A stretch of 55,904 nucleotides of DNA from an uncultured Gammaproteobacteria bacterium (GCA_964502815.1 CAZCXV010000004.1:18150-74053); one strand, 5' to 3'; positions 4,566 to 42,371 are shown, counted from the first letter of the stretch. Notes: generated by a model from the sequence alone, not told the origin. Made by a program: numbers and translations.

Positions 4566-6332
4566 ATGACGAGAAAGCTAATCGCTGTCGTTTTTGCCCT
4601 TCTTGCCTTCAACATAATCTTTTTTCCATTCCAGAAGAAATTTTTTGGCAGCTTAATTTTTCCTAACCTTGGAAGTGTTGGCTTTTTTACCTTTATCTTA
4701 GCTTTTCAAGTTTTTCAGTATCTTTCCCACTACAACAACAAAAATGAAGCCAAGAATAAATCAGCAATTGCCCTGTCTGTTACCGCGGTGATCTTAGCCG
4801 GTTTTTCAGTTTTCAGAACCAGCATGGTAGACATATTTGTTTTTGATTTTTTCTCTCTTACGGCAAGTATGTTGTCTTTGTACACACTTTGCCTGGAAAA
4901 GGAAAAATCCATCACGAGCATTTTTGAAATTGCTTTTTCACCAATTATTCTTTTCTTTGAAGGCTTCAAAGGTTTTGCCAGAGGGCTTGTAGCTCTTAAG
5001 GCTTTGCCCAAGTTACGATTCGGCAAATTCCTAAATGGGGGAGTAGTCAATATTTTTCTAGGGATAATCCTGGGTATTCCTGTGGTACTTCTTATCACTA
5101 CACTTTTGTCATCGGCTGATCCCATCTTTTCAAAAATCCTTACCAATGCCATTAACTTAAAAAACTTTCCTTGGTGGTTTATTAACGGGGGAATGTCAAG
5201 AGTGATCTACTCAGTCTTTTTCTTAATGGGTGTTTTGTCTTTGATCTATCTGATAGTCAAAAGGTACCCTGGTGAAGAAAAATTTGATTACAATCTCCAC
5301 TTTGTAAACTTGTCCGAGCGAAAATCAGCTTTTGTATTTTTGTCTATTGTAGCCATGATCTCTTTTGTTCTAGCAGCTTATCTGATTGTTGATTTCCCCT
5401 ACCTTTTTGCAGATGTGCCTGAAACTGAACTTATTAAGTATGGCGTCAACAATCTTTCAGAGTATGTCACTAAAGGCTTCAATGAATTAATTGTTGTTTC
5501 AGTCATTGTTTATCTGACAGCCAGTGTTTCAGTCTTTGTCTATAAAATGGGTGGCCGCGGGGCCAAGCTTCTTAAATGGTTTAATGTTTTCCTTCTTTCT
5601 GAAACGGTAGTCTTTATTTTCTCCATCTTTAGGAGAGTGGCTATTTATCAGGAAACCCACGGCTTAACCAGAGTTAGGATTTATGGTTCTGTCTTTTTGG
5701 CAGGCCTAACCATCTGGACAGTAATATTAATCTTAAGGCACTGGCAAAAAATCAAAAAATGGTTTTGGTATGAACTCTCGGTTTTTGCAGTTCTTTGTTT
5801 GACCGTCTTTTTTGTCAAACCCGACTATATTATTGCAAACAAATTTAAGCCAACGGTCAACAAGGAAATTGATTATGTGTATATCTCAAGATTGTCACCT
5901 GAAGCCGTTGATGGCTGGATAGTAGGCTATAAAGATGCAGTGGAAAAAATTAACAAACTGTCTAAAAAAGACAGAAGTACTTGGAGTCAGGAAGACGAAA
6001 GACTTGGCTACTATGCTTTCCTTACCCTAAATATTTTACGAAACAGCACTAAAAAGTTAGCCCTAAAGTACGGTACAGCCGAAGACATTTTTAATGCCAA
6101 GGCAACCTATGGCCTGCCAAAGCCCGCGCCTGATATTAAAGTCGTAAATTTTACTGAGAAATGGGCCTTTGAGAAAATAAAGATCGAAATAGGAATTAAA
6201 AACCTAATTGACCAAGAAGAAAAAGCTTACAACCTTCTTTATAACGGTTACTCCAGCCCAAGAAGCATTAATCAAAACTTTGACAGATCTCTAAGATCCC
6301 CACTCCTAAAGAATGTTGAAATAGTACGCTAA
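4566..6332 (+). CDS. polytopic membrane protein of unknown function
   Basis: Long ORF with many hydrophobic helices and no catalytic motif that I recognise. Confidence 0.5.
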   Translation: MTRKLIAVVFALLAFNIIFFPFQKKFFGSLIFPNLGSVGFFTFILAFQVFQYLSHYNNKNEAKNKSAIALSVTAVILAGFSVFRTSMVDIFVFDFFSLTASMLSLYTLCLEKEKSITSIFEIAFSPIILFFEGFKGFARGLVALKALPKLRFGKFLNGGVVNIFLGIILGIPVVLLITTLLSSADPIFSKILTNAINLKNFPWWFINGGMSRVIYSVFFLMGVLSLIYLIVKRYPGEEKFDYNLHFVNLSERKSAFVFLSIVAMISFVLAAYLIVDFPYLFADVPETELIKYGVNNLSEYVTKGFNELIVVSVIVYLTASVSVFVYKMGGRGAKLLKWFNVFLLSETVVFIFSIFRRVAIYQETHGLTRVRIYGSVFLAGLTIWTVILILRHWQKIKKWFWYELSVFAVLCLTVFFVKPDYIIANKFKPTVNKEIDYVYISRLSPEAVDGWIVGYKDAVEKINKLSKKDRSTWSQEDERLGYYAFLTLNILRNSTKKLALKYGTAEDIFNAKATYGLPKPAPDIKVVNFTEKWAFEKIKIEIGIKNLIDQEEKAYNLLYNGYSSPRSINQNFDRSLRSPLLKNVEIVR

Positions 6333-8529: not shown

Positions 8530-8905
8530 TTTCACCTACTATGTCAGTACTTTTCTTTTTGGGATAGGTTATTGTATCGCTAGCAATAGATTTTCTTCTC
8601 GCTTCTAGGTTGGTCTCGATTATTATTCCTTCAATTGTCGTTTTGGGTTTCAATGTTTCAGCATACCAAATTGTAAAATGACACAGTTTCTTTCTCAGAC
8701 TCTCTAAATTTAATTGGTCGATTATTTCTCTATCTTCAGGAAGATGAAAACTATGAATTGTTTGTTCCTTATCTTTAAAGTCATTACCTGTTTGTATGCC
8801 CCTGATTTCATAGATATTTGCTGATGTTTTTATCACCATTCCAATAAAATTATTTATTCGTTCTGGCATATTTTGAATTCTAACACCTAAAGATGAGATT
8901 TGCAT
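8486..8905 (-). CDS. hypothetical protein (139 aa)
   Basis: Convergent ORF whose 3' end overlaps the previous ORF by 44 nt. No recognisable domain. Confidence 0.35.
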   Translation of the reverse strand: MQISSLGVRIQNMPERINNFIGMVIKTSANIYEIRGIQTGNDFKDKEQTIHSFHLPEDREIIDQLNLESLRKKLCHFTIWYAETLKPKTTIEGIIIETNLEARRKSIASDTITYPKKKSTDIVGETKPSQVEEHFVSEL

Positions 8906-24058: not shown

Positions 24059-25145
24059 CAACCTCAAAACAAAATGACAGTTTTGATATAGTTAATTAGT
24101 GTATTTAATTAGCCTCACTGCCCAGGAGTCTGAAATTCTTTCTGACTATGTAAAGTCTTGTCCCATTGAAACCATTCGCCTTCGTGCACATGCTCTTTTG
24201 ATGAGAAATAGAAGTTTGTCTTTGGAAGACATTTCTCCTCTTGTTTTTAGATCTCAAAGAACTGTAACCCGTTGGCTTGAAGAGTTTTCTGAAAAAAGAT
24301 TAGCTTCAATTTTCTCAGGCCATATTGATAATCAAAATGCTTCCAAATTAACCAGAGATCAAAAAAGACAAATAAAAGAAGTTTTGTCTACTCCACCCAA
24401 TAAATATGGAATACCTAAAGAATTTTGGTCTGTCTCAAAACTCAAAGACTACATTAAAGCTACGTTTGGTGTAGTGTATGAAAGTGATATTAGCTACCAC
24501 TTTTTACTTCAATTTTCTGGACTTTCTTTCAAATACCCAGATAAAACTAGTCCAAGACGTGATGAAGAATTAATTGCAAAAAGAATTCAGGAAATAAAAG
24601 AAGAGGTGGAACCTCTTCTTTCTGATCCTTCTTGGATTGTTTTAGCTTCAGATGAAGTTAGAGTTCAATTGGAATCTGAAATTAGAAGAGCTTGGCTGGT
24701 TAGAAATAAAAAGACCAGGATCCAAACTGAAAGAAGTAAAGAACATCAAAACTACCTTGGGTTTTTGGATCAGAAAACTGGAAACTGCCAAGTATTCCAA
24801 ATTAAAAGAGGAAATGGCACTGAAACTATTAGAGTTTTGAAACAGGTTGTAAAACAATATCAAGGTAAAAAAGTTTGTGTTGTATGGGACAATGCCAAAT
24901 GGCATAAAGGAAAACTTCTCAAATATGAGTTGGCAACAACCAAAAAACTACAAAATTTACACCTAATTAGTTTTCCTCCATATGCTCCTGAAACTAACCC
25001 AATTGAGCATGTTTGGAAATATGCAAAAGACAAAATAGCAAATAAAGACTCAGAAAACTTTGACCTGATAAAACAAAAATTTCTTGATACAATAAACAAT
25101 AGATATTTCAATTACAAAATCTGACATTTTGTTTTGAGGTGACTA
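24056..25145 (+). mobile_element. IS630/Tc1-mariner-family insertion sequence (1090 bp) with 25-bp terminal inverted repeats and a TA target duplication
   Basis: IRL tagcaacctcaaaacaaaatgacag (24056-80) matches the reverse complement of IRR (25121-45), tagtcacctcaaaacaaaatgtcag, at 22/25 positions. TA lies at 24054-55 and 25146-47. Confidence 0.85.
24099..25124 (+). CDS. IS630-family DDE transposase
   Basis: N-terminal HTH region, VWDNAKWHK and PPYAPETNPIEHVWKYAK motifs typical of the IS630/mariner DD(E/D) catalytic core. The stop lies inside IRR. Confidence 0.85.
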   Translation: MYLISLTAQESEILSDYVKSCPIETIRLRAHALLMRNRSLSLEDISPLVFRSQRTVTRWLEEFSEKRLASIFSGHIDNQNASKLTRDQKRQIKEVLSTPPNKYGIPKEFWSVSKLKDYIKATFGVVYESDISYHFLLQFSGLSFKYPDKTSPRRDEELIAKRIQEIKEEVEPLLSDPSWIVLASDEVRVQLESEIRRAWLVRNKKTRIQTERSKEHQNYLGFLDQKTGNCQVFQIKRGNGTETIRVLKQVVKQYQGKKVCVVWDNAKWHKGKLLKYELATTKKLQNLHLISFPPYAPETNPIEHVWKYAKDKIANKDSENFDLIKQKFLDTINNRYFNYKI

Positions 25146-27829
25146 TAAATCTGCCAAATATAATATTGAGAAGAGCCATTAAATATGCGGACGAGCATGG
25201 TTTGCGAATAATAACTCCTAGACCGCCAAGAATAAAAGGAAACATAAGGTCTTTTGAAATCATCAAGGAAGAAAATGACCAAGAAGGGGTAGAAAAGGTT
25301 ATCTTTACAGCTTTGTATGAAGGTTGTGATGGCCAACTTCCGAGAAATGATTCTGGAATTAGCAAAGCCATTACAAAGGGATTGGAAAAAAGAGAAAACT
25401 TTTTTAACGAATCGTTTCCTATTGTAAAGAAACTCAAAAAGCCGACTAATTTGGCTAGCAAGGACACAAATTTACCATTTGTTTCTTATAGTATTATTGT
25501 TTGTGACGATTTGGGTTATGCTAGGCAGACTTTAGATCGGGCTGAGATTGAGTATGAAAATAGGTATCACCTGGCTTCGTTGCCAAACCTTAAATATTTA
25601 CACGAGTCATACGAAGGTCGACTTAATCTCGTTAAAGCTTTATGTGGATCATTAACTCATAAAGTAGGATTTGTGACTGAAATTGGAAACGTAAAGGAAC
25701 AGGCGGTGATTATCAGAGGGTATTTGGCAGCCATAGCTTTGGAGGCCTTTGGCGAAGAAAATAAAACCTATGATCCTTTCTTTTTTGATTTCCAAGACCT
25801 GACGGAATTAGCAGTCGTTGGTCAACTAATTCGTGAAGACAAGAGTAAATTTAATCAAATCATAGATACTGCAATGGTCAGATTTGGAGAGGTTGGAGAA
25901 CTTGAAAGTGAAATAAAGTCCATTTTTGAAAACTATTTAAACTTTATAGTTTTACAGACGGCCAGATGGAATGGTTCGTCTAAGAGTTCGCTACTGTCAA
26001 TAGAAAACCCTCAATATTGGACCAATTTGCAAAACTTTTTTGAAGGTTTACCTGTTGATGCGAAGAGCGCAAGTCAAAAGTATGGTTTCACTCCAGAAAG
26101 TGCTCTGGAAGCACACAGAGACAAAATGCCACATTTGTGGCGCAATGCGGACAATATTCAAAGTTATTTGATCCCTTCGGGCAGGGATCTAGCCAGAGCA
26201 ATATTACTTCTACATCGAGAAGGAGCTCCTTTGGCATATTCCACCTTTCTACCTATGTTAAATGGTGCGATTAGAGCAAGGCAACACTTCGACGAAGTTA
26301 CGTTTCGGTATCCCAACCAAATTACACAATTAGAAAAGGAATTAATGGAAATAGATCAGGCAATGTTGGTTGATCAATTAACGTCAAGCGAAGCTCAAGA
26401 ATTCATTAATTCCTATGAACTGAGGTCTAAAATATTGACAAGAACCAGTCAAGAGTATGAGCAGGCTCTGAACTACGAACAAAGAGTTATTTTAAAATTA
26501 AATCTTCCTTTGAAAGAGGATAGAATATCGGTTTTACACGAATACATCGTTATGATCTCAAATGAACTAGAAGATAGGCAGCGAGAACTAATAAACACAA
26601 AAGACCGAACAGTTACTAAATTAAAACAGCCATCTTGGTTAGATTTTGACAGATTTACTGTTTCGAAAGCACATCCTAATGGTAGTTTAGAAGTGATAGA
26701 CCCAACGGACACAGTGGTTATAGATTCCAAATTGATCAGAATATCCAGAATAAGAGCTGAGTATAAAATAGCTAGAGCGAAATACCTTACTCAAATCCGT
26801 CGGAGTTCTGAATCTAATTTAGATGGAACAAAAAGTATAAATTCAGATTTAGAGTCGCAAGTGGTAGTAGACATGCTCCCGGCACAATATCTAGAAGATC
26901 CTGAAAAATTAATCAGTTTTTTAAACTGGTGGAAAGGTAAATCCGAAAATGCTAATGAGGTTGGGAAACTACGGAGAGTAATAACAATAATATCCAATAG
27001 ATCTCCGAACCCGCAACAACGAAAGTATGTCAAGAATGTCTTTTTTACTGATTTAAAATTGCTAGAAAAAAATAACAGGCGCTTAAAATTTGTATTGCAA
27101 GAGGAAAGAGAAGTTTCAGAACTGAGAATACAAGTAGCTTCTTGTCTTAGTACTGACTATATTAAAGGGGAAAATGAATTCAGAGCCAAAGCCAGAGAGA
27201 TTCTTGCTTTAAATGATGGAAATACACTAGTTGGTGAATTAAGACTATCAATACTGCCAAAGGCAATTAAGGATGATTTATTAAACCAAGTAAATATCTC
27301 TGAGTATGGGGCGCAGTTAAATCAGGCTGAAAATCTATTAAGAGAGTATAGGAGTATTTTTTCAAGAAAAATAGTTAAGTTGGAAGTTTCTGATTCACTT
27401 CAAATTAAAGAGGAAATAGATAGCTATTTAGGAAGAGTAGAGTCTGAACCTCTTTATCTTGGAGCCAGTCACAGTAGAGCAATTTCATTTTTAAATAATC
27501 TTTCTCAGATGGCAGATAACCCCTTCTGGCCGGTGGTGCAAGATAGACCTCTTTCTAGACTAATGGCATATTTAAAAAGTAGAGTTCAAATTGCAAAAGC
27601 CCATTTGTATAAAGTCGAAGTTGACAGTCAGCTTTCTGAGCTGAAAAACCAACATAAATACTATGAATCACTCAAGGTGCAAGAAAAACTAAAAGTAAGA
27701 AGTGTTAGGCTTCAAAGTATTCATAAGTATAAAAGATTTGAATATGATCATGCTCAGGATTTACTTCTTAAAAAAATGCGAGAATTAGGACTTGCTTTAC
27801 CGGCTAATTATTTCTCAGAAGGAGAATAA
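25139..27829 (+). pseudogene. 3' portion (about 893 codons) of the IS-interrupted large orphan gene
   Basis: The only canonical start for this ORF (GTG 25139) lies inside the IS end. The frame is continuous with 23972-24055 once the IS and one TA are removed. Confidence 0.6.
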
Positions 27830-32378: not shown

Positions 32379-33551
32379 ATGATAATTAGACACCTTGACA
32401 GGGAACTCATGAGTCACTTTGATAAATATAATGAAGTTTTGGTCTTGCTGGGAGCCAGACAAGTGGGAAAAACTACTATTCTCAAACGGATTTTTCCAGA
32501 GGCTCATTACTTAATTGTTGACAATGAACCTATAAAAAATGCCCTTGAGCGTTACGATCCAACTGTTTATAAGCAATTGTTGAATACAATGCAAGGCATT
32601 GTTGTATTGGATGAGATTCAAAAATTAAGTGATCCGGGTCGCGCAACAAAAATATTTTTTGATCAACTTCCTGAATACAAACTTATTATTACTGGATCTT
32701 CAGCTTTTAATATCAAGAACAAGTCTTCAGAAAGTTTAGCTGGTCGTAAAATAGATTATCATCTTTACCCATTATCCCTTAGTGAATACTTAGTACAAAA
32801 TAGTCTTGAGAATTCTTTGTCATTTCGACCGATGGAGGTACTGCTTCAAGAGGGAAAAGCTGGCGAAATATTTAAACAATATGATCATAAAGCGATTTTA
32901 AATAATATTTTGATATATGGATTATATCCTGCGATGCAGTCCCACCCCAGTGATTCAGTATATTTGACTAATTTAATTGATAGCGTTGTTTTTAAAGATT
33001 TAGTAGAGTTGTCTCTTTTAGAAAACAAATCTGCTGCTCTTTCTTTGCTTAAACTATTAGCTTATCAAATTGGCTCACAGGTCAATTATGCAGAACTGTC
33101 GTCCAAATTGGGAATCGGTGCACGGACTGTAAAAAGATATATCGAGTTATTTGAACAAAGTTTTATTATTTTTACTATAAAACCCTACACATCAAGAAAG
33201 AGAGATGAAATTGCAAAGATGCCTAAAATTTTCTTTTATGACTTGGGTTTAAGAAATGCTTTAATAAACAACTTTGAACCTATAGAGAATAGAGGAGATG
33301 TTGGTCAACTATTTGAAAACTTTGTTATTAGCGAATTCCTAAAATATAATAACTATGGAAACTTTGGATATAGTTTTAATTATTGGAGAACTAAGAGTGG
33401 CTCAGAGGTGGATTTAGTTTTAAGTAAGCCTAATCATGAGATTGTTGCTGTTGAAATAAAGAGTACCTCGCAACGAATTAACCAATCATTTGCGTCGCGA
33501 TATCCAACAGCAAAGGTTGTGGTTATATCTAAGGATAATTATTGGGTTTAA
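32379..33551 (+). CDS. AAA-family ATPase with a DUF4143-like C-terminal region
   Basis: Walker A GARQVGKTT and Walker B VVLDEIQ. The overall layout matches the common 'ATP-binding protein' family often found in accessory regions. Confidence 0.7.
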   Translation: MIIRHLDRELMSHFDKYNEVLVLLGARQVGKTTILKRIFPEAHYLIVDNEPIKNALERYDPTVYKQLLNTMQGIVVLDEIQKLSDPGRATKIFFDQLPEYKLIITGSSAFNIKNKSSESLAGRKIDYHLYPLSLSEYLVQNSLENSLSFRPMEVLLQEGKAGEIFKQYDHKAILNNILIYGLYPAMQSHPSDSVYLTNLIDSVVFKDLVELSLLENKSAALSLLKLLAYQIGSQVNYAELSSKLGIGARTVKRYIELFEQSFIIFTIKPYTSRKRDEIAKMPKIFFYDLGLRNALINNFEPIENRGDVGQLFENFVISEFLKYNNYGNFGYSFNYWRTKSGSEVDLVLSKPNHEIVAVEIKSTSQRINQSFASRYPTAKVVVISKDNYWV

Positions 33552-33753
33552 TACGAATGGGTTCCAAATATCTCAGCCGGGAGCTCATTTCACTGTCCTA
33601 ACTTTAGAATTTAACTTCAGATTTAAATTACCTAAACCAAATAAAGAAAGATTGATTTTGAAGATAGATAAATTTGGTAAAATAGTGCATTCTAGAGTTA
33701 GAAGCAAATTTTCTTTACTTTAACTAATAATAATTTGATACTATGGATTAGCT

Positions 33754-35358
33754 ATGACTGAAGAAACACCAAGGGAACAGTTAAATCTCCTATCTCACAA
33801 TGTTTCCAGAAGACTTTTTTTGAAGACAGGGTTAACTGGTTTGTTGGCTGCTGCAGTAGGTAGCATTGTCAAATCGAAGATTAATTCAGGTTCAAGATCA
33901 AATCCACACACAGAAACTCCTATCGAAACTGCAATCCTGAAGACACCAGAATATCAGTGCGTAAATTTAGATGGCATAGACATTTATGGTACTAATGAGG
34001 CTATTTCTTCAACCACAGAACTCCAACAGCTAACTGATCAAATAAACGATCAATTTTTGATAGACAATGGTTTGAAACCGGAACCACAATTAAATGAATT
34101 TGAAGTAAGACAGAAACTGCTGGATGAAAGTGAAAGATATTTACAAGTAATAGTAAAAAAAGCATTATTTGATAATTTTGAATCACAAAATACTAGCAAA
34201 GATGGCATAGAGGTAAAGACTGATTTTATCAATTGGATTAAAGATCATATGGAGATTTTTAATAATTTCACAAGTCAGGGCGAACCAAAGACCGACTTGA
34301 AGGCAAAAATAAAGAGAATCATAGTGGTCCATGATGATTTTGATGATAGGTTTCCTAGTCACCAAAACGTTGCCACAACTACTTTAGATACTGACGCCCA
34401 ATGGGCTTTCTTTTGGGATGTTAGGGGAGATGTAGATCCAACAACAAATGAATCACAAGCATCATCGTTTTTAAGACCTACTTTTGTTAATGGAAGGATT
34501 GTTACCATAGATTATGGAGTGATTCATGAATGGACTCATATGCTCTATAACTTGCCCGATCAATATATTTTTAATTCAGAAAAGTTTTCTTATCGTCCAG
34601 TAGACTTAATTCCTCCATTTCTAATGAGTCAGGGAGGTATGATGTATGACCGCTCTCCATGGTTTTATTACGCTCTTAAGTATATTCGTGATAACAATAT
34701 ACGAGGATATTATACAGATGAGAGGGCTATGGGGATTATAGGTCAAAGTTCTTTGAAAGAAGATCAAACGACTGTATTAGATATTTTTAAACAACATCCA
34801 AAGACTAACAGATTTGTTATTAAGGATGCAGATGACCAGCTTTTGGAAGCTCAGATAACAGTTTTAAAAAGCCGCAATGACCGAGATGGTAATTATTACA
34901 ATCCAAAAAACTTCGAGCCTTGCTATAATGGGCAGGTGATTAATGGGGTTTTTGAACTAGATGCAGATATTTTTGCTTCGTTTGGTGCTGTAGATTTTGC
35001 TGGTAGAAGTGTTATTCAGTGGCCTACAAACTTTGTTTTTGAAATCACAACCTCTAAGGGGGATAAAGCAATATTACATTTTCCTGTTGTTATTTTTAAT
35101 ATTGCAAGTCTTGCAGGACTTGATGAAGCTAGTTATAGTCTCCAGTTATTAAATACAGATGCAACATCATCCACTAATCAACAAGTTATGCAAATGAGTG
35201 AATTTACACCAGAGCAAATGAATATACATTATCCATATGAAGCCGTAAACATCCCATACGCCCAGCTAGATATTGACAATATTCCTGTCTCTTTTCATTG
35301 GATAATGGCAGATCCTAAGATTGGTGAGATTCAAGATCGAAGTTTATTTGGATACTAA
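33754..35358 (+). CDS. exported protein with a twin-arginine signal and an HExxH motif (putative zinc metallopeptidase)
   Basis: N-terminal SRRLFLKTGLTGLLAAAVGS matches the Tat consensus S-R-R-x-F-L-K. An internal IHEWTHML motif is present. Confidence 0.5.
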   Translation: MTEETPREQLNLLSHNVSRRLFLKTGLTGLLAAAVGSIVKSKINSGSRSNPHTETPIETAILKTPEYQCVNLDGIDIYGTNEAISSTTELQQLTDQINDQFLIDNGLKPEPQLNEFEVRQKLLDESERYLQVIVKKALFDNFESQNTSKDGIEVKTDFINWIKDHMEIFNNFTSQGEPKTDLKAKIKRIIVVHDDFDDRFPSHQNVATTTLDTDAQWAFFWDVRGDVDPTTNESQASSFLRPTFVNGRIVTIDYGVIHEWTHMLYNLPDQYIFNSEKFSYRPVDLIPPFLMSQGGMMYDRSPWFYYALKYIRDNNIRGYYTDERAMGIIGQSSLKEDQTTVLDIFKQHPKTNRFVIKDADDQLLEAQITVLKSRNDRDGNYYNPKNFEPCYNGQVINGVFELDADIFASFGAVDFAGRSVIQWPTNFVFEITTSKGDKAILHFPVVIFNIASLAGLDEASYSLQLLNTDATSSTNQQVMQMSEFTPEQMNIHYPYEAVNIPYAQLDIDNIPVSFHWIMADPKIGEIQDRSLFGY

Positions 35359-35582
35359 AGTAGGGCTTATAAAATATAATTTTTAAAAATGTTAAAATAC
35401 AGCCATGAGTCTTTCAGTAGGAATAGTTCGAGTCAGAACCAACATTTCCCTTTTGAGCTTGTGATATCGCTTCCTCCTCCAAGAATTGCCAGATTAATAA
35501 CGCAAAGAGACGAACTGGGAAGAATAATACACTCGCAGCCACGGTTATAAATTTAACTTTTATATAAATAACCTTATAAGTT

Positions 35583-37232
35583 TTGCTAAAATACTCCTCA
35601 ATGGTAGAATTTACAGAGATGGACAAATTAGCAGGATCAGATTTGAACAGACAGTATCTGGAAGGAATTAATAAAGAACAACAAAGGATACTTGGGAATA
35701 TTCCACCTGACATTCGTCCCGATAGAGAAAGAACTATTACTGGCACATTTCAATCATTAAGTAATAAGCTTGCTGCTCGTGAAGATTTTGAATTTGGAGA
35801 ACGTCAGCAAGCTATTTTAAAACTAAAGATTACACGTCATCTTGAAAAAGAAGACAATATTGATGCGAGTACTTTATTCGACGCAATTATCGAGTCTCCA
35901 GGTTTTATAAATAAAGACAGAGGATCTTTGCAAAGACTGTTTGAGGTTCATGAAGAAAAAACACTGTTAAAAATTGCTGAAATTAGAAAGAAACTTGCAG
36001 AACGCCAAAAAGGAGAAGGTGCAAATCCTTGGGAGAATCTTTTTACTACTGAGTCGGGGAATTATTATGTAGCAAGGCTTTTGAATATGCCTCATTTGCA
36101 AATGGAATCAGCTTATATGGATCATTGTGTCGGTACAAGCGACTCGTATGTTAATAGAATGAAAAAGGGTGAAATTGAAATACTTTCATTTAGAAATGTA
36201 CCAAAAATAAACTCCAGAACCCAGAAACTTGAAGGAGATACTCCTATTATCACAATTGAATATAACCTGAAAACAAATACCATTGAACAAATGAAAAAAG
36301 CTAATGATGAATATTTAAAGCCAGACGATCCTTATTTTAATGATGTAATTGATGCTCTAAAGCAATTAAGAGGAACGAGAACGGATACTGGAAAATTAAG
36401 AACTTTCGCTAAAATCAATCCAAGTGAATTAGAAAATATAAAAGTTGCCGATTATCATGTTCTTACAGAAAATGGTGCGATTTCATTTCGTGAATTTGAC
36501 CCAGATATTGATGGCTTTGTATTTAAGACAGGAAAAATGGAAATTAAGCCAGAATATTCGCGGGTCGATGTATCAAAAATTGTATCAATATTAACAGGAG
36601 TCAAGTATGAACCAGAAGAATTAGCACGAACACAATCAGAAGTAACTAGTAAAACAAGATTTTATATTGGAGAATTTTATAAAGGAATTGAAACTGCTTT
36701 ACCACTAAATGTTGAGATCCATCCAGGATTTCCAGAAGGAAAAAGGATGATAAGAAATGACACGATTGTTGAAAATAAAAATGTTTATGATTTGAGAACA
36801 ATACTTAAGAAAAAAGAAGTTTACATAACAGATTATGCTGGTCAAATATTGGAAAACGCTAAGCTTGGTAATTCTGGGGAATATAGAACCATTATTCTTA
36901 GTGTTGGACACTTAATGAGAAAAACAGACACAAAAGGTTATTTGACAACAGGTGAAGTAAAAGGGAGGTTAACAGAACTTGGTTTACTGGATAAAGACAA
37001 TCCTACACCTCCTGAAATAGCAGCATATTATGCCCTTCAAAATGGTGATACTATTGACATGTATGAATGGGTTTACGAGATTGGAATGGAACCGGTCGCT
37101 GATTCTGATGGCTACCCGAACGTGTTCGGTGTCAGTCGCGGTGAGTATGGCGTGGGGTTGTACGGCGATTGGATCGGTTCCGGCGACGGGTGGGGTTCTG
37201 GCGATAGGCTTCTTGTTTCAGTTCGCAAGTGA
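35583..37232 (+). CDS. DGR target protein: PcfJ-like central region with the variable repeat in its C-terminal 44 codons
   Basis: The 3' end is the VR copy of the repeat pair. MDHCVGTSDSYVNRMKKGEIEILSFR resembles the PcfJ-like HCVG signature (recollection). The likely true start is ATG 35601 rather than TTG 35583. Confidence 0.8.
   Translation: MLKYSSMVEFTEMDKLAGSDLNRQYLEGINKEQQRILGNIPPDIRPDRERTITGTFQSLSNKLAAREDFEFGERQQAILKLKITRHLEKEDNIDASTLFDAIIESPGFINKDRGSLQRLFEVHEEKTLLKIAEIRKKLAERQKGEGANPWENLFTTESGNYYVARLLNMPHLQMESAYMDHCVGTSDSYVNRMKKGEIEILSFRNVPKINSRTQKLEGDTPIITIEYNLKTNTIEQMKKANDEYLKPDDPYFNDVIDALKQLRGTRTDTGKLRTFAKINPSELENIKVADYHVLTENGAISFREFDPDIDGFVFKTGKMEIKPEYSRVDVSKIVSILTGVKYEPEELARTQSEVTSKTRFYIGEFYKGIETALPLNVEIHPGFPEGKRMIRNDTIVENKNVYDLRTILKKKEVYITDYAGQILENAKLGNSGEYRTIILSVGHLMRKTDTKGYLTTGEVKGRLTELGLLDKDNPTPPEIAAYYALQNGDTIDMYEWVYEIGMEPVADSDGYPNVFGVSRGEYGVGLYGDWIGSGDGWGSGDRLLVSVRK
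35584..35592 (+). promoter_or_regulatory. extended -10 element TGcTAAAAT, 8 nt before the ATG at 35601
   Basis: Same TGn-TAnnnT-N8-ATG geometry as at folD. Confidence 0.4.
37099..37230 (+). repeat. DGR variable repeat (VR)
   Basis: 132 bp aligned by hand to 37535-37666. There are 21 differences, each opposite an A in the other copy. Confidence 0.9.
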
Positions 37233-37534
37233 TTTTGATTCTTTGACCCTTTGATACTTTACGTTTTTTGTTTTGACGTCAGCCACAAGCTGGGTTTATA
37301 CTTTTAAAGTTTGGTTAATCTTGAACGGTTACGGCTGTTAGAAACCTTACTGATGAATTTAAACTGAGAACAGGAACGGTTAAGGCTTTTCTTGGAGGGT
37401 TTAAATTTGTCCACTAAAAAAGGAAAAACTTGGTGTCCCATGTTGGTTGATTACTCGAAAGAGGTTATCACACGTAAAATACAGCTGATGTCAATTTACA
37501 AAGGTAGTGGAATAGATGAGACGGTACACATAAA

Positions 37535-37666
37535 CTGATTCTGATGGCAACCCGAACGTGTTCAATGTCAATCGCGATGAGAATGGCGTGAAGTTGAACG
37601 ACAATTGGATCAATTCCGGCAACAAGTGGAATTCTGACAATAGGCTTCTTGTTTCAGTTCGAAAGT
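37535..37666 (+). repeat. DGR template repeat (TR), non-coding
   Basis: A-rich copy with AAY codons in the VR frame. 21 of its 38 adenines differ from the VR, and no C, G or T differs. Confidence 0.9.
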
Positions 37667-37676
37667 ATTACTTTTT

Positions 37677-37704
37677 CCCCGCTCAATTTCTGGGCGGGGT
37701 TTTT
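37677..37704 (+). terminator. GC-rich hairpin (CCCCGCTC-aatttct-GGGCGGGG) plus TTTTT, 10 nt after the TR
   Basis: 8-bp stem with one G-U pair, read directly. It overlaps the avd stop codon on the other strand. Confidence 0.6.
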
Positions 37705-37982
37705 GTATTTGATTTTTCAATATTAGTTCTCCAACCTCCAAACATTTTCCCAATTTCTGTTAATTTGATTGACATTTCTTCATATTGCTTATTTAAAATA
37801 AGTTTTGCTTCCCAAGCAGTTAGAATTAGAAACTTCAGTTTATCCAGAATCAAAATACATTCAGTTACTTTCTTTCTTTTTATTTCTTTTGGGCTAAAAT
37901 AGGTTTCGTATGAAAATTCAAGCAAATCTAAGAATTTATTTTCAATTCTTGCCCCAATTGCATACCTCGCACCTTTCGGCAT
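37683..37982 (-). CDS. avd: DGR accessory variability determinant (Avd-like four-helix-bundle protein). The frame stays open upstream to 38072 without a canonical start.
   Basis: PKGARYAIGARIE...LDKLKFL...YEEMSIKLTEIGKMFGGW fits the Avd pattern (P..r..lG.Ri...Ld.L...Y......eiG..lGGW). In-frame upstream codons encode IIGKVKEAYLVWLQVIPH, which resembles Avd helix 1. Confidence 0.7.
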   Translation of the reverse strand: MPKGARYAIGARIENKFLDLLEFSYETYFSPKEIKRKKVTECILILDKLKFLILTAWEAKLILNKQYEEMSIKLTEIGKMFGGWRTNIEKSNTKTPPRN

Positions 37983-38019
37983 ATGAGGGATAACTTGAAG
38001 CCATACCAGATAAGCCTCT

Positions 38020-39024
38020 TTGACTTTACCTATAATATTCGTTTGCAGAGAGAGAGAGAGAGTTATAGTTTCTCATTTATATGATGATATCATTTCAATC
38101 TCAAATTTGCTTGTTTCTTGGCAGGAATTCTTAAAAGGTAAGAAAAAGCGAAAGGATGTAATTAAATTTTCACTGAATTTAATGGATAATGTTTTTGAAC
38201 TTCATAAAGATCTTGTGAATGGAAAATATAAACATAGTTTGTATCATGCCTTTAAGATAACTGATCCTAAAGCTCGTGATATTCACAAAGCAAGTGTTCG
38301 AGATAGGTTACTCCACCACGCGATTTACAGAATTTTATACCCATATTTTGATAAAAAATTTATCTTTGACTCTTATTCCTGCAGAATTGGGAAAGGGACT
38401 CACAAGGCAATCAACCGTTTTCAGCTTTTAGCTAGGAGAAGTAGTAAAAATAACACGAAAACAGTATGGATTTTAAAGTGTGACATTAAAAAATTTTTTG
38501 CAAATATTGATCACGAAACGTTAAAAAATATCTTAGCAAAATATATTAAAGATGATGGCGTTGTATGGCTGTTGAACCAAATTATTGACAGTTTTAGTCC
38601 AGGATTACCTTTGGGAAATCTTACCAGCCAGCTCCTTGTTAATATTTACATGAATGAGTTTGATCAGTTTATGAAACGTAAATTAAAAGTAAAATATTAT
38701 ATTCGGTACGCAGATGATTTTGTAATTTTTCGTCAAAACAAAGAATATCTTCAACATTTGATTCCAAAAATTTTAGATTTTTTGGAAAAAAAATTAAAGC
38801 TTTCACTTCATCCAAACAAGGTTTTCATCAAAACATTAGCTTCAGGGGTAGACTTTTTGGGTTGGGTTAATTTTCCTAGTCACAGAATTTTGAGAACATC
38901 AACTAAGAAAAGAATGCTAAAAGGGCTTAAATTAAATAAAGCTAAAGAAACAAAGGCCTCTTATTTGGGATTATTAAGTCATGGCAATACTTATAAAATA
39001 AGAAAAAGTAAGTTTCTGCTATAA
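38020..39024 (+). CDS. DGR reverse transcriptase
   Basis: IRYADDFVIF (YxDD catalytic motif), LPLGNLTSQLLVNIY (the DGR-type [I/L]GxxxSQ motif), FDSYSCRIGKGTH and NLLVSWQEFLKGKKKRKD N-terminal block. The TTG start is uncertain. Confidence 0.85.
   Translation: MTLPIIFVCRERERVIVSHLYDDIISISNLLVSWQEFLKGKKKRKDVIKFSLNLMDNVFELHKDLVNGKYKHSLYHAFKITDPKARDIHKASVRDRLLHHAIYRILYPYFDKKFIFDSYSCRIGKGTHKAINRFQLLARRSSKNNTKTVWILKCDIKKFFANIDHETLKNILAKYIKDDGVVWLLNQIIDSFSPGLPLGNLTSQLLVNIYMNEFDQFMKRKLKVKYYIRYADDFVIFRQNKEYLQHLIPKILDFLEKKLKLSLHPNKVFIKTLASGVDFLGWVNFPSHRILRTSTKKRMLKGLKLNKAKETKASYLGLLSHGNTYKIRKSKFLL
38047..38062. repeat. (AG)8 / (CT)8 dinucleotide microsatellite inside the overlapping 5' regions of avd and RT
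   Basis: Eight perfect AG units counted directly. Confidence 0.95.
38084..38092 (-). promoter_or_regulatory. extended -10 element TGaTATCAT (minus strand), 7 nt before a minus-strand ATG at 38076-38074
   Basis: The minus strand reads gattgaaaTGaTATCATcatataaATG. That ATG is 2 nt out of frame with avd across the (CT)8 tract. Confidence 0.45.
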
Positions 39025-39033
39025 TTTCAAAAT

Positions 39034-40035
39034 ATGGGGTCAAAAATCGATGTCGGAATAGTGGGTTTACCAAATGTAGGTAAGTCAACTCTTTTTAATG
39101 CACTCCTAAAAAAGCAAACTGCATATGTTGCCAACTTTCCTTTTGCTACAATCGAGCCAAATGTTGGCGTGGTTCCAGTACCAGACATTAGACTGGCAAA
39201 ACTTGCAGAAGCAGTAAAAGAATCTGAAAAAATGCCATCTCTTCCTCCAGAGGTCCCTGCAACTGTAGAATTTGTTGATATTGCAGGACTTATTGCCGGG
39301 GCGCATAAAGGAGAAGGGTTGGGAAATAAATTCTTAAGCCACATTAGGGAAGTTGATGCAATTTGCCATGTGGTTAGAGTTTTTACGGATAGTGATATTG
39401 TTAAAGAGGGAAGTATTAACCCAAAAAGTGATTTTGAAACGGTTAGAACGGAACTTGATTTGGCGGATTTGGAAATGACCGAAAAACACAGCCTTAAAAA
39501 AAATGCGGATCTACCCAGCCTGCCACTTTTTTCCAAAAAACCAATCTTAATCGTCTTAAATGTTTCAGAATCAGATTTAGCAAATACTACCCAAATTGAA
39601 GGACAGTATGCAGCAGAATTTGGCGTTGATCAAAACCAAGTAATTGCAATTTGTGCCAAGACAGAGAGCCAACTGGCAGACTTATCCACTGAAGAACAAT
39701 TAGACTATCTGAAAGAACTAGGAGTAGATAAGTCGGGCCTGGAGAGACTTATTCGAAAAGCTTTTAAAACCTTAAGCCTGATTACTTTTTTAACAGCAGG
39801 CCAAAAGGAAGTTAGGGCTTGGACAATAAAGGTCGGCTTTAAAGCCCCTCAAGCTGCAGGGATAATCCATACCGATTTCGAAAAGAAATTCATCAAGGCA
39901 GATGTAGTAGACTTTAGCGATTTTGTAACTCTTGGAGGATGGAAAAATTCCCGTGATCATGGGAAAGTCAGAAGTGAAGGCAGAGATTATCAAATGCAAG
40001 AAAGCGATGTTGTTGAGTTCAAAATAGGCACATGA
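39034..40035 (+). CDS. ychF: ribosome-binding ATPase YchF
   Basis: GIVGLPNVGKSTLFNAL P-loop and C-terminal TGS-like FIKADVV...VVEFK. Confidence 0.9.
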   Translation: MGSKIDVGIVGLPNVGKSTLFNALLKKQTAYVANFPFATIEPNVGVVPVPDIRLAKLAEAVKESEKMPSLPPEVPATVEFVDIAGLIAGAHKGEGLGNKFLSHIREVDAICHVVRVFTDSDIVKEGSINPKSDFETVRTELDLADLEMTEKHSLKKNADLPSLPLFSKKPILIVLNVSESDLANTTQIEGQYAAEFGVDQNQVIAICAKTESQLADLSTEEQLDYLKELGVDKSGLERLIRKAFKTLSLITFLTAGQKEVRAWTIKVGFKAPQAAGIIHTDFEKKFIKADVVDFSDFVTLGGWKNSRDHGKVRSEGRDYQMQESDVVEFKIGT

Positions 40036-40055
40036 TATACTTACACCTGTAAAAT

Positions 40056-40337
40056 ATGAACAAATATGAATTGACTGTAGTCCTCGATGGCAAGCTTAGT
40101 GCTGCTAAGAAAAAAGGGATTAAGGAAAAAACCGTTAAACTGGTTGAAGCATTTAAGGGAAAAATTGGCAAAGTTGAGGATTGGGGTACTAGAGATTTGG
40201 CCTACAAAATCAAAAAATCAGAAACCGGAGAATTCTACTTTTTTCCAGTTGAGATGGATTCCGATAAAGCAAAAGCCCTTAATGATAAATTAAGGTTAGA
40301 AGAGGACTTACTTAGGTATTTACTTATTAGAGTTTAA
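40056..40337 (+). CDS. rpsF: 30S ribosomal protein S6
   Basis: MNKYELTVVL start and conserved rpsF-ssb-rpsR order. Confidence 0.85.
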   Translation: MNKYELTVVLDGKLSAAKKKGIKEKTVKLVEAFKGKIGKVEDWGTRDLAYKIKKSETGEFYFFPVEMDSDKAKALNDKLRLEEDLLRYLLIRV

Positions 40338-40371
40338 AGGGTAAATTAAAACTTAAGGAAAGACAAATAAA

Positions 40372-40860
40372 ATGGCAGGAAGAAGCTTAAACAAAGTAAT
40401 TTTGATAGGAAACTTAACTCGTGACCCGGAACTCAAGTATACTCCCCAAGGAACTGCAGTTTGTACTTTTGGGATTGCCACCAATAGAAGTTGGAAAACG
40501 GAATCTGGTGACCAAAAAGATGAAGTAGAGTTTCACAACATTGTAGCTTGGCAGTCATTGGCTGAAATCTGCTCCAAGATGCTTAGGAAAGGTATTAGAG
40601 CTTTTGTTGAAGGTAGACTGCAAACTAAAAGCTGGCAGGGAACCGATGGCACCCAAAAACAAAGAACAGAAATAGTCATTTCGGACATGATTATTTTGGA
40701 ACCAAAAAGAGTTGAAGGGGAAACAATCGATGTCCCCGCAGATTTTGGCGCAGGTGATCTCCCTGAGGCAGTAAAGCCAGAGGCAAAGAAAGAAACGGTT
40801 TCTTCTAAAAAAGCAAAAAGTCAAGAAAAGCCTGAGACCGAAGAAGACATCCCCTTTTAA
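40372..40860 (+). CDS. ssb: single-stranded DNA-binding protein
   Basis: LNKVILIGNLTRDPELKYTPQG OB-fold start and acidic C-terminal tip EEDIPF. Confidence 0.9.
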   Translation: MAGRSLNKVILIGNLTRDPELKYTPQGTAVCTFGIATNRSWKTESGDQKDEVEFHNIVAWQSLAEICSKMLRKGIRAFVEGRLQTKSWQGTDGTQKQRTEIVISDMIILEPKRVEGETIDVPADFGAGDLPEAVKPEAKKETVSSKKAKSQEKPETEEDIPF

Positions 40861-40869
40861 AGAATATAA

Positions 40870-41118
40870 ATGGCAAAAAGATCGCAGACACCTAGAAAAA
40901 AAGTAGAAAGAAAGCCAACTGGCGGTTGTGTTTTTTGTAAGGTCGACAGAACTCCCGACTATAAAGAGGTATCCAATTTGGAAAAATTTTTGACAGATCG
41001 AGCCAAAATTGTTTCTCGTGCAAGAACTGGCGTTTGCTCCAAACACCAAAGAAGATTAGCTCAAGAAATAAAAAGAGCCAGACATCTAGGACTTCTTCCT
41101 TTCACTGGTGGACTCTAA
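40870..41118 (+). CDS. rpsR: 30S ribosomal protein S18
   Basis: DYKEVSNLEKFLTDRAKIVSRARTG..KHQRRLAQEIKRARHLGLLPF. Confidence 0.9.
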   Translation: MAKRSQTPRKKVERKPTGGCVFCKVDRTPDYKEVSNLEKFLTDRAKIVSRARTGVCSKHQRRLAQEIKRARHLGLLPFTGGL

Positions 41119-41144
41119 GCCTCAATTTGTGTAAAATTTAGTTT

Positions 41145-42371
41145 GTGACTATTACTAAAAAATTAAAGACCCACTTTTTATTTATCTTTTTTGGTTTAAT
41201 CTTTTTTGTGAGTGGGTATCTTGTTGGCACAAGAACTTTAGAGCTAAACCTTAAAGGGCCAAAAGTAAATATTGTAAGAGCCGTTCCTCAAAACCGAGAT
41301 AGTCTTGATTTTTCGCTTTTCTGGAAAGTTTGGGATACTTTGTCTGCTTCCTACTTTGATAAATCAAAATTGGTTGATTCAAAAATGGTTTATGGAGCTA
41401 TCTCTGGCATGGTGTCAGCCATAGGGGATCCCTACACTATCTTCTTACCACCATCTGAAAATAAAGTAGTGGACGAAGATTTAAGTGGAAGGTTTGAAGG
41501 CATTGGGATTCAAATTGGCTTTAGAGGAACACAGCTGGCAGTCATTGCCCCCTTGCCAGATAGCCCTGCTCAGAAAGCCGGAATAAAGGCAGGGGATTAT
41601 ATTATTGGCATTGAGGACCTTAAAAAAGGCATCAGCCGGGGAACTTCGGGAATTACTCTTCCAGATGCAGTTGAAGCTATTAGGGGAAAATCGGGAACGT
41701 CAGTGAAGTTAACCCTTCTTAGGACAGGCATGGATAAACCAATTGAAGTTGATGTTACCCGCGAGCGGATTGACGTTCCAAGTGTAACTTTGGAGATGGT
41801 CGGGGACAATAAAAACATTGCCCACATTAGACTTTCAAAGTTTTCGGCTGAAACTAAGGAAGAATGGGATGAAGCGGTAACAAAAATTTTAAAAGATCCA
41901 AATGTAAAAGGTATTATTATTGACGAAAGAAATAATCCAGGAGGTTATTTGCAAGCAGCAGTTGATTTGGCCTCAGATTTTATTCCGGTGGGTAAAACTG
42001 TGGTTATTGAAGAAAACGGTAAAGGACAAAGAAATGAATATAAAGTAGAGCGAATTGGCAGGCTTTATAAGATCCCGGTCGTGGTTTTGCAAAACGGTGG
42101 ATCAGCCTCAGCTTCAGAAATATTGGCGGGGGCATTAAGGGATCAAAACAAAACACTTTTAATTGGCGAAAAAAGTTTTGGTAAGGGGACAATTCAGGAG
42201 CCAATTGATATTGAAGGTGAATCAGGACTTCATATAACTATCGCCAAGTGGCTTACTCCTAACGCCGTTTGGGTCAATGAAAAAGGCCTGGAGCCAGATA
42301 TTAAAGTGGAAGACAAGGAAGATACCCAGGAAGATGAACAACTCCAAAAAGCTATTGAATATCTTTTGTAA
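41145..42371 (+). CDS. ctpA: S41-family carboxy-terminal processing protease with PDZ domain
   Basis: GIGIQI, PDZ block SPAQKAGIKAGDYIIGI, and catalytic region GGSASASEILAGAL..GEKSFGKGT. Confidence 0.85.
   Translation: MTITKKLKTHFLFIFFGLIFFVSGYLVGTRTLELNLKGPKVNIVRAVPQNRDSLDFSLFWKVWDTLSASYFDKSKLVDSKMVYGAISGMVSAIGDPYTIFLPPSENKVVDEDLSGRFEGIGIQIGFRGTQLAVIAPLPDSPAQKAGIKAGDYIIGIEDLKKGISRGTSGITLPDAVEAIRGKSGTSVKLTLLRTGMDKPIEVDVTRERIDVPSVTLEMVGDNKNIAHIRLSKFSAETKEEWDEAVTKILKDPNVKGIIIDERNNPGGYLQAAVDLASDFIPVGKTVVIEENGKGQRNEYKVERIGRLYKIPVVVLQNGGSASASEILAGALRDQNKTLLIGEKSFGKGTIQEPIDIEGESGLHITIAKWLTPNAVWVNEKGLEPDIKVEDKEDTQEDEQLQKAIEYLL

Follow-up and report, generated by a model that had tools for sequence, protein, structure and literature searches.

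A chromosomal diversity-generating retroelement of a candidate phyla radiation lineage with a record of recent activity

Diversity-generating retroelements (DGRs) from candidate phyla radiation (CPR; Patescibacteria) bacteria were reportedly the subject of work by Paul et al. in Nat Microbiol in 2017. In the prototype DGR, the mtd-avd-TR-brt element of Bordetella phage BPP-1, a variable repeat (VR) at the 3′ end of the target gene is diversified from a template repeat (TR) by adenine-specific mutagenesis. For CPR genomes, Wu et al. (2018; PMC5758913) defined the order TR-(avd)-RT as architecture B3, which accounts for 90% of their CPR set, listed a PcfJ-like domain upstream of the VR as target category g, and noted that many database DGRs are inactivated. 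Roux et al. (2021; PMC8144416) described a Patescibacteria-restricted 'DGR clade 2'. Here, we analyze a locus at positions 35583–39024 of a 55,904-nt stretch deposited under the name of an uncultured Gammaproteobacteria bacterium (GCA_964502815.1, CAZCXV010000004.1:18150-74053); this whole stretch is called the window below. The locus shares with the CPR systems of both studies the radiation, gene order, reverse transcriptase (RT) and PcfJ-like target, and nothing essential differs. We consider it very probable that it is a chromosomal DGR of the CPR-specific lineage, that is, B3 of Wu et al. and clade 2 of Roux et al. The element is real and essentially complete, bears the traces of recent activity and is ordinary as a DGR: CPR DGRs, their B3 layout and PcfJ-like targets were already known, and the locus adds little in that respect.

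Adenine-specific repeats and recent TR-to-VR transfer

A direct-repeat search of the window, followed by base-by-base comparison of both copies, returned a single 132-nt direct repeat at 37099–37230 and 37535–37666 on the plus strand (offset 436, 84% identity). The upstream copy, the VR, comprises the last 44 codons of the target gene and runs into its stop codon; the downstream copy is the TR. The two differ at 21 of 132 nt, and every difference falls on a TR adenine (17 A>G, three A>T and one A>C from TR to VR). Among the 38 TR adenines, 17 are unchanged in the VR, and there are no differences at TR C, G or T. Under a hypergeometric model, 21 mismatches would all land on the 38 adenines of the 132-nt repeat with a probability of 2.3 × 10−14. 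An original prediction made from this DNA had given the same counts, which the computed alignment reproduced exactly, and it had named mismatches at non-adenine template positions as refuting; none were found. Homology between the copies breaks off sharply at either end, the TR is free of stops and indels relative to the VR, and neither a further TR copy nor a second VR was found in the window. Within the 549-amino-acid (aa) target open reading frame (ORF), 20 of the 21 changes occupy codon position 1 or 2 on template codons AAC, AAT, AAG, GAC or GAT, and the last is a synonymous CGA/CGC change, which bears out the asparagine-type codon design proposed earlier.

Comparison with a closely related strain provided further backing for this core of adenine-specific repeats, RT and Avd. 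Contig L001, from an aquifer metagenome in ENA, matches window positions 32583–39986 (7.4 kb) with 99.26% identity. Of 40 substitutions between the two, 23 lie inside the 132-bp VR (Fisher P = 6 × 10−31), and 22 of these 23 occur at TR-adenine positions. The 23rd, G>T at 37172, mirrors the sole TR difference between the strains, G>T at 37608. L001's own TR and VR differ at 19 positions, all at A. As the TR and VR of L001 share this non-adenine G>T, a TR mutation must have been copied into the VR. At the level of assembled sequence, this shows that information has passed from TR to VR after the split of two 99.3%-identical strains.

The RT gene (38020–39024, plus strand) encodes 334 aa from a TTG at 38020, a start that is uncertain, and its ORF is intact in the window. 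In a sister allele described below, the product has 347 aa from an ATG. It matches Pfam RVT_1 (E = 2 × 10−23) and PHROG_1423 'Reverse transcriptase' (E = 1 × 10−107). The closest PDB chain is 8ub7_A (E = 1 × 10−40), verified as the brt product of phage BPP-1, while group II intron RTs reach approximately 1 × 10−20. In the alignment to bRT, LGNLTSQ corresponds to IGSLTSQ and YADD to YMDD. By its sequence, the protein thus has the (I/L/V)GxxxSQ motif and YxDD site of the DGR clade of RTs, in line with the motif-based assignment in the original prediction. Against NCBIfam, the RT gave only sub-threshold group II, retron and DRT matches, the best being a group II intron RT/maturase with 139.6 bits for a cutoff of 300. 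In L001, a 13-bp deletion at position 6065 (corresponding to window 38646–38658) frameshifts and splits the RT; contig L087, with the same allele type, lacks the deletion and has an intact RT. The deletion is therefore either an artefact of assembly or an inactivating variant carried by a minority.

The accessory gene avd lies on the minus strand (37683–38076), with a conserved Avd body from 37683 to approximately 38036. It was detected by Pfam bAvd (E = 1.5 × 10−10, 42–46.8 bits, cutoff 40), by NCBIfam DivGenRetAVD below its cutoff (E = 2 × 10−14) and by the PHROG family 'Avd protein of DGR' (E = 1 × 10−14). The earlier identification of an Avd ORF was therefore correct in kind, but the gene is not simply downstream, as it runs in the opposite direction (37683–37982 for the form that starts at a canonical codon). 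In the window allele, the only canonical in-frame start is the ATG at 37982, which gives a 99-aa form that lacks the start of helix 1. Upstream of this codon, the frame continues with residues that match Avd profile positions 14–20 in helix 1. In sister contigs, avd starts at an ATG formed by the complement of CAT 38074–38076, which in the window is out of frame with the conserved body. The description of the element as complete thus stood insofar as VR, TR, RT and Avd are all present and requires qualification for the avd start.

The target gene (35583–37232, plus strand) encodes 549 aa from a TTG at 35583; gene calls on a sister contig place the start at ATG 35601 (543 aa). The protein consists of a helical N terminus, a PcfJ-like domain at residues 118–242 (PF14284 PcfJ, E = 1.8 × 10−7) and a C-terminal domain of approximately 130 aa that holds the VR; no transmembrane or other recognizable domain was identified beyond the PcfJ-like one. 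More than 200 homologues of 530–720 aa occur in CPR genomes, and their C termini share the VR scaffold. The target had been regarded as unusual, a view that category g of Wu et al. does not sustain. An AlphaFold2 (AF2) model of the full-length protein had a pLDDT of 87, and a Foldseek search with it returned no significant PDB match; the top results were weak MYST acetyltransferase alignments from which no function can be derived. Most homologues of 690–720 aa (for example, P0005, P0014 and P0034) have an extra N-terminal domain of approximately 170 aa that is absent from the window protein, contains the conserved motif GYIACEDF...EAYIKY...GWN.RLN and has no Pfam match. One homologue, P0002 (67% identity), is truncated and lacks the VR domain. 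Immediately 5′ of the target, a 534-aa ORF (33754–35358) has a twin-arginine-like signal (RRLFLKTGLTGLLAAAVG) and no Pfam domain.

Several observations weigh against the reading as an intact, active DGR. The evidence of activity is a strain comparison at the assembly level, so that activity in the exact window haplotype is putative, the RT start codon is ambiguous, and the window allele has no in-frame ATG, GTG or TTG 5′ of avd helix 1. A BPP-1-type pair of initiation of mutagenic homing sites (IMH/IMH*) was not found: no non-adenine TR/VR difference marks an IMH, and homology ends at the stop codon. Nor did we find a GC-rich hairpin or cruciform 3′ of the VR, where the flank is AT-rich with CTTTG repeats. 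The last ~24 bp of the repeats had been described as a near-invariant boundary of the IMH/IMH* type. This part did not hold, as the final 24 bp carries A>C at 37226 in the window VR and A>G at 37220 in L001, and every TR/VR difference in it lies at a TR adenine. Given adenine mutagenesis at 37220 and 37226, this segment belongs to the mutagenized tract, with no IMH/IMH* distinction. Structural evidence for the VR domain is likewise slight. With an AF2 model of the C-terminal 130 aa (pLDDT 89), C-type lectin-like domains ranked first in Foldseek, weakly (TM 0.41–0.45, best E = 0.11; rhodocetin, BDCA2, CD72 and MCL), and the DGR variable proteins Mtd, TvpA and AvpA were not among the top 50 matches. 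The model thus only weakly suggests a C-type lectin fold.

Host, lineage and layout

The window is chromosomal (dnaX, cysS, hisS, dnaB, ychF and rpsF-ssb-rpsR; GC content ~37%), and its DnaB is 70–72% identical to those of 'Candidatus Blackburnbacteria' and Woesebacteria. On these sequences, the best explanation is a host of the Microgenomates type, similar to Woesebacteria or Blackburnbacteria. The RT is 60–87% identical to thousands of database RTs from CPR genomes; among GTDB species representatives alone, it has more than 572 relatives, nearly all from Patescibacteria, with thousands in the protein collection. For comparison, we assembled 80 relative loci, in ~60 of which adenine-biased repeats were identified by self-BLAST. 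The gene order VR, TR (at an offset of 380–560 nt), reverse-oriented avd and RT was stereotyped in essentially all 80. With TR (+), avd (−) and RT (+), the window has architecture B3. The suggestion that its layout is uncommon is thus contradicted by both our relatives and the set of Wu et al., and the accompanying remark that DGRs have been reported in CPR genomes agrees with Wu et al. (PMC5758913) and Roux et al. (PMC8144416).

With the BPP-1 prototype, the element has in common a target whose 3′ end holds the VR and is mutagenized from the TR in an adenine-specific manner, (I/L)GxxxSQ and Y(A/M)DD motifs in the RT, the accessory protein Avd and a TR within a structured RNA in which one continuous strand is predicted to pair with both TR ends. 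It differs in that avd is on the opposite strand, downstream of the TR. Whereas the accessory RNA of BPP-1 is a 140-nt Sp downstream of the TR, here it is a leader of ~225 nt upstream, and the TR RNA seems to be transcribed as a separate unit that ends ~40 nt past the TR. The VR lacks an IMH/IMH* pair and a GC-rich cruciform and is instead followed by 8-nt CTTTG repeats. Finally, the element is chromosomal and cellular, not phage borne, with a PcfJ-like protein and not a tail fibre as its target.

Some relatives and neighbouring genes showed further features. Locus L004 (JGI 3300025030), with an identical target protein (P0003), has a divergent avd/RT copy with AAGAGAAAAAGG in place of the repeat tract discussed below (junction near 8650–8760), and its downstream genes, encoding a helix-turn-helix protein and a DEAD/SNF2 helicase, also differ, which suggests cassette replacement or recombination at the DGR. 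In L044, a 6-kb stretch contains two VRs along with two TRs of the same sequence (2346–2484 and 5452–5590), and the DGR cassette thus appears duplicated. Elsewhere in the window, an 896-aa ORF (25139–27829) had no Pfam match, and one scan of species-representative genomes returned no relatives of it. An alternative code with UGA as a sense codon was considered for the odd starts and stops and rejected, as TGA serves as the stop in 12 of 40 long ORFs.

A putative template RNA and the flank of the variable repeat

The spacer between VR and TR is conserved across the clade. It contains a sigma-70-like promoter for a putative TR RNA (37273–37302, plus strand; TTGACG-18-TATACT, 10/12 consensus match), and the −10 box was kept at the same place in an alignment of 60 spacers. 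The promoter is followed by a structured 5′ leader of ~225 nt (37309–37534). RNAalifold analysis of 57 leaders predicted five helices on the plus strand: H1 (37322–30/37333–41), H2 (37371–81/37384–94), H3 (37433–44/37518–29), H4 (37448–51/37467–70) and H5 (37484–86/37503–05). Compensatory changes were present in 30 of the 36 predicted pairs. Leader cells were paired in 94.5% of cases compared to 41–51% with slid partners, and the covariation score was 0.79 compared to 0.11–0.17 for slid and 0.30 for shuffled controls, with none of 500 shuffles reaching the observed values. H3 is a 12-bp helix that ends 6 nt before the TR. Directly 5′ of it lies strand P (GGAAAAA, 37422–37428), complementary to P′ (UUUUUCC, 37672–37678) on the other side of the TR; the two form a candidate duplex of the template:primer type at the TR 3′ end. 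In 61 loci, P/P′ complementarity was locus specific, with a mean of −5.73 kcal/mol compared to −3.76 ± 0.19 kcal/mol for mismatched locus pairs. A terminator scan identified a GC-rich hairpin (CCCCGCTCA/TGGGCGGGG) followed by a T run at 37677–37705, which resembles an intrinsic terminator and overlaps the avd stop codon. A hairpin and T run 3′ of the TR recurred in ~60 of 64 relatives with differing stem sequences. Rfam searches of 36900–38300 at gathering and permissive thresholds yielded nothing but chance-level small RNA matches over the terminator; the leader had no match, and no intron RNA domain or retron msr/msd was found.

A described RNA for comparison is that of BPP-1, in which positions 50–70 of Sp pair with the TR 3′ end (template:primer) and with a segment 5′ of the TR (cPRT stop), and an Avd-binding stem-loop follows the TR (bioRxiv 10.1101/2023.10.23.563531). 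The CPR RNA is predicted to have the same topology, with the bridging strand upstream of the TR and not downstream. A structured RNA that pairs with both TR ends, in the manner of the BPP-1 template:primer and cPRT stop, is thus recognizable here, and by analogy it would have the same function. The hairpin at 37677–37705 is possibly also an Avd-binding stem-loop.

From comparison of ~60–80 relatives, we infer the following scheme. The TR would be transcribed as its own RNA of ~400 nt from the spacer promoter (start at ~37309), ending at the hairpin and U run (~37705). A continuous strand, consisting of P, a linker that reads CUUG here and (A)UACUU in most relatives, and the H3 5′ arm, would pair with the TR 3′ flank (P′) and with the segment just 5′ of the TR (the H3 3′ arm), so that the TR is looped out. 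By analogy with BPP-1, RT-Avd may prime in cis from the linker that joins P to H3, reverse-transcribe the TR, misincorporating opposite A, and terminate at H3, after which the cDNA would replace the VR.

The VR may be marked as the target by sequences with no counterpart at the TR. Directly after the VR (37238–37261, plus strand) are three CTTT(G/A) repeats at 8-nt spacing, with motif starts at 37241, 37249 and 37257. Arrays of three to six CTT(T/A/G)(G/A) motifs occur directly downstream of VRs in ~60 relatives. In 61 loci, the density of CTT[ATG][GA] was 3.07 per 64 nt after VRs compared to 0.43 in the background, and at least three copies were present in 69% of VR flanks compared to 0.9% of background windows. 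The spacing peaked at 8 nt, and the motif was absent after TRs. We regard the repeats as a candidate target-site marker, and the asymmetry between VR and TR flanks is, on sequence grounds, a plausible determinant of TR-to-VR directionality. Pairing of the repeats with the loop of leader helix H5 (UUCAAAG-like) was considered and rejected, as matched loci (−8.53 kcal/mol) did not outperform permuted (−8.16 ± 0.29 kcal/mol) or random (−7.82 kcal/mol) controls.

A simple-sequence tract between avd and RT

The divergent avd/RT junction contains an (AG)8 tract (38047–38062) that is (AG)9 in four sister contigs. It sits between the sister-contig avd ATG (complement of 38074–76) and the conserved Avd body, and one extra unit restores the frame. 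In L001 and L087, the (AG)9 allele encodes a 131-aa Avd, whose ATG start is complementary to the conserved His codon of the RT, together with the 347-aa RT ORF. L168 and L169 come from two further samples and match the window perfectly over 36877–41600 (4.7 kb), VR and TR included, bar one extra AG unit. Across the clade, ~75 of 78 junctions (~95%) carry a G7–G14 or (GA)5–18 tract; 757 kb of sequence hold 77 such tracts, 74 of them at an avd/RT junction. The tract type alternates between poly-G and (GA)n, with the character of a hypermutable repeat kept; one relative with 80% identity has (AG)18 between the same flanks. In a second species with identical RT and flanks, G10 gives a 130-aa Avd ('MKTPPPRQ...'), G11 and G12 are frameshifted, and three contigs end within the tract. 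In many (GA)n-type RTs (window 38063–38080 and L006, L086, L007, L008 and L041), neither ATG nor GTG nor TTG separates the tract from the conserved H-x-Y-D-D-I N terminus; instead, the expected start is ATA, ATT or CTG, or the ORF reads through the tract as (RE)n.

Simple-sequence contingency loci include poly-G tracts in Neisseria lgt/porA and (TA)n between the divergent hifA/hifB promoters of Haemophilus influenzae. The junction tract resembles them as a hypermutable homopolymer or dinucleotide in a 5′ coding or promoter region whose length varies between genomes that are otherwise the same, which puts a start codon into frame or out of it, and its position between divergent genes is hif-like. 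It differs in that it would control an accessory gene of a mutagenic retroelement, not a surface antigen, and in that the hosts are environmental CPR bacteria. In a slipped-strand switch of this kind, (AG)9 would provide avd with its ATG and turn the element on, whereas with (AG)8 the ATG is out of frame and the window haplotype would probably be off. Judged from sequence, we place the chance that the tract in 5′ avd acts as such a switch, with the window haplotype probably off, at slightly short of even. We put forward more tentatively, and with some doubt, that in nearly all CPR DGRs such a tract stochastically toggles avd and hypermutation, in combination with a permuted RNA that has an upstream priming and stop strand. 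As far as checked in the searchable literature, neither the switch nor the permuted RNA has been described: no paper linking DGRs to simple-repeat switching and no description of the leader, terminator hairpin, CTTTG repeats or junction tract in CPR DGRs was found in searches that did not cover Paul et al. 2017.

Several points count against a switch. Two of four unbiased same-species sets showed no variation in tract length; three sets of exact proteins (P0173, P0222 and P0216) are uninformative, as the called RT spans the tract and forces identical lengths. Homopolymer and dinucleotide lengths are error prone in short-read assemblies, and the length variation reported here is at the assembly level. 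By hand count, ~40% of loci have the distal avd start in frame, near the 33% expected by chance, ~20% have only a proximal start and ~35% have none. Where a possible start lies between tract and helix 1, as in the ~20%, the tract may be untranslated. These frame statistics fit both a random-phase coding tract and a non-coding tract and are not decisive. It is quite conceivable, if somewhat less than probable, that the tract is instead a purine-rich element for RT ribosome binding or promoter spacing, or a tolerated slippery spacer, with lengths that are neutral or assembly noise. In that case, avd would start at a proximal or non-canonical codon (ATT, ATA or CTG in the window), and the DGR would be constitutively functional. 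At most poly-G loci, the tract indeed precedes a canonical ATG of the RT by 9–25 nt, in the manner of a G-rich Shine–Dalgarno sequence, and the window tract is the exact 16-nt spacer of a predicted TTTGCA-16-TATAGT promoter. Tract-less loci (L004 and L083) retain a purine-rich or AAGGAG sequence in the corresponding position, and the ~16 loci with a start codon between tract and helix 1 and the two invariant species sets fit as well. However, tracts of up to (GA)18 or G14 go far beyond what a Shine–Dalgarno sequence or promoter spacer needs, and a 36-nt tract (L086, L041 and L056) is incompatible with −35/−10 spacing; a promoter-spacer role, which fits the 16 nt of the window, fails for relatives with 24–36-nt tracts and the same flanks. 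The change between poly-G and (GA)n with hypermutability kept is also difficult to reconcile with these roles. Moreover, about one third of loci have no canonical in-frame avd start yet possess an ATG just past the tract, and frame-restoring alleles occur in the same strains.

The out-of-frame avd ATG could also mean that the window carries a decaying, permanently inactive DGR; the VR/TR differences would then be only a relic of past activity and the missing avd start a product of simple degradation. The deletion that splits the RT in L001 and the many inactivated database DGRs noted by Wu et al. (PMC5758913) would fit such decay. We nevertheless consider it improbable: the RT ORF is intact with its YADD site, the TR has neither stops nor indels relative to the VR, L087 combines the L001-type allele with an intact RT, and TR-to-VR transfer postdates a TR mutation that separates strains only 0.7% apart. 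The in-frame (AG)9 occurs in contigs whose VR is identical, so that the defect comes down to one repeat unit and is reversible. The view that the repeats are a plain duplication, diverged through chance or adenine-biased mutation, next to an unrelated group II intron or retron RT, is effectively refuted. The best NCBIfam match of the RT, below its cutoff, and the 'retron-type' or 'group II intron' RT labels that some database sources give to relatives would point that way. Yet such a duplication does not account for 21 of 21 mismatches on adenines, for changes confined to codon positions 1 and 2 or for the adjoining avd gene, nor for an arrangement that recurs in ~60 relatives. The solved structure closest to the RT is BPP-1 bRT by 20 orders of magnitude, and Rfam yielded neither an intron RNA domain nor a retron msr/msd nor any further match.

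The value of this chromosomal DGR lies in its being a well-documented, recently active example with sister haplotypes. Taken with its ~80 relatives, it exposes the conserved cis anatomy of the cellular DGR lineage with the most members, which would include a transcription unit dedicated to the TR. A permuted leader that reproduces the Bordetella topology supports conserved cis-priming and offers a compact RNA for reconstitution, and the VR-specific repeat array could explain target choice without an IMH. The hypermutable tract, in turn, could answer how cells control a self-mutating element. If it is a switch, assemblies and annotation pipelines would systematically miscall avd and RT in CPR genomes, and CPR populations would hedge their bets on DGR activity at two levels.

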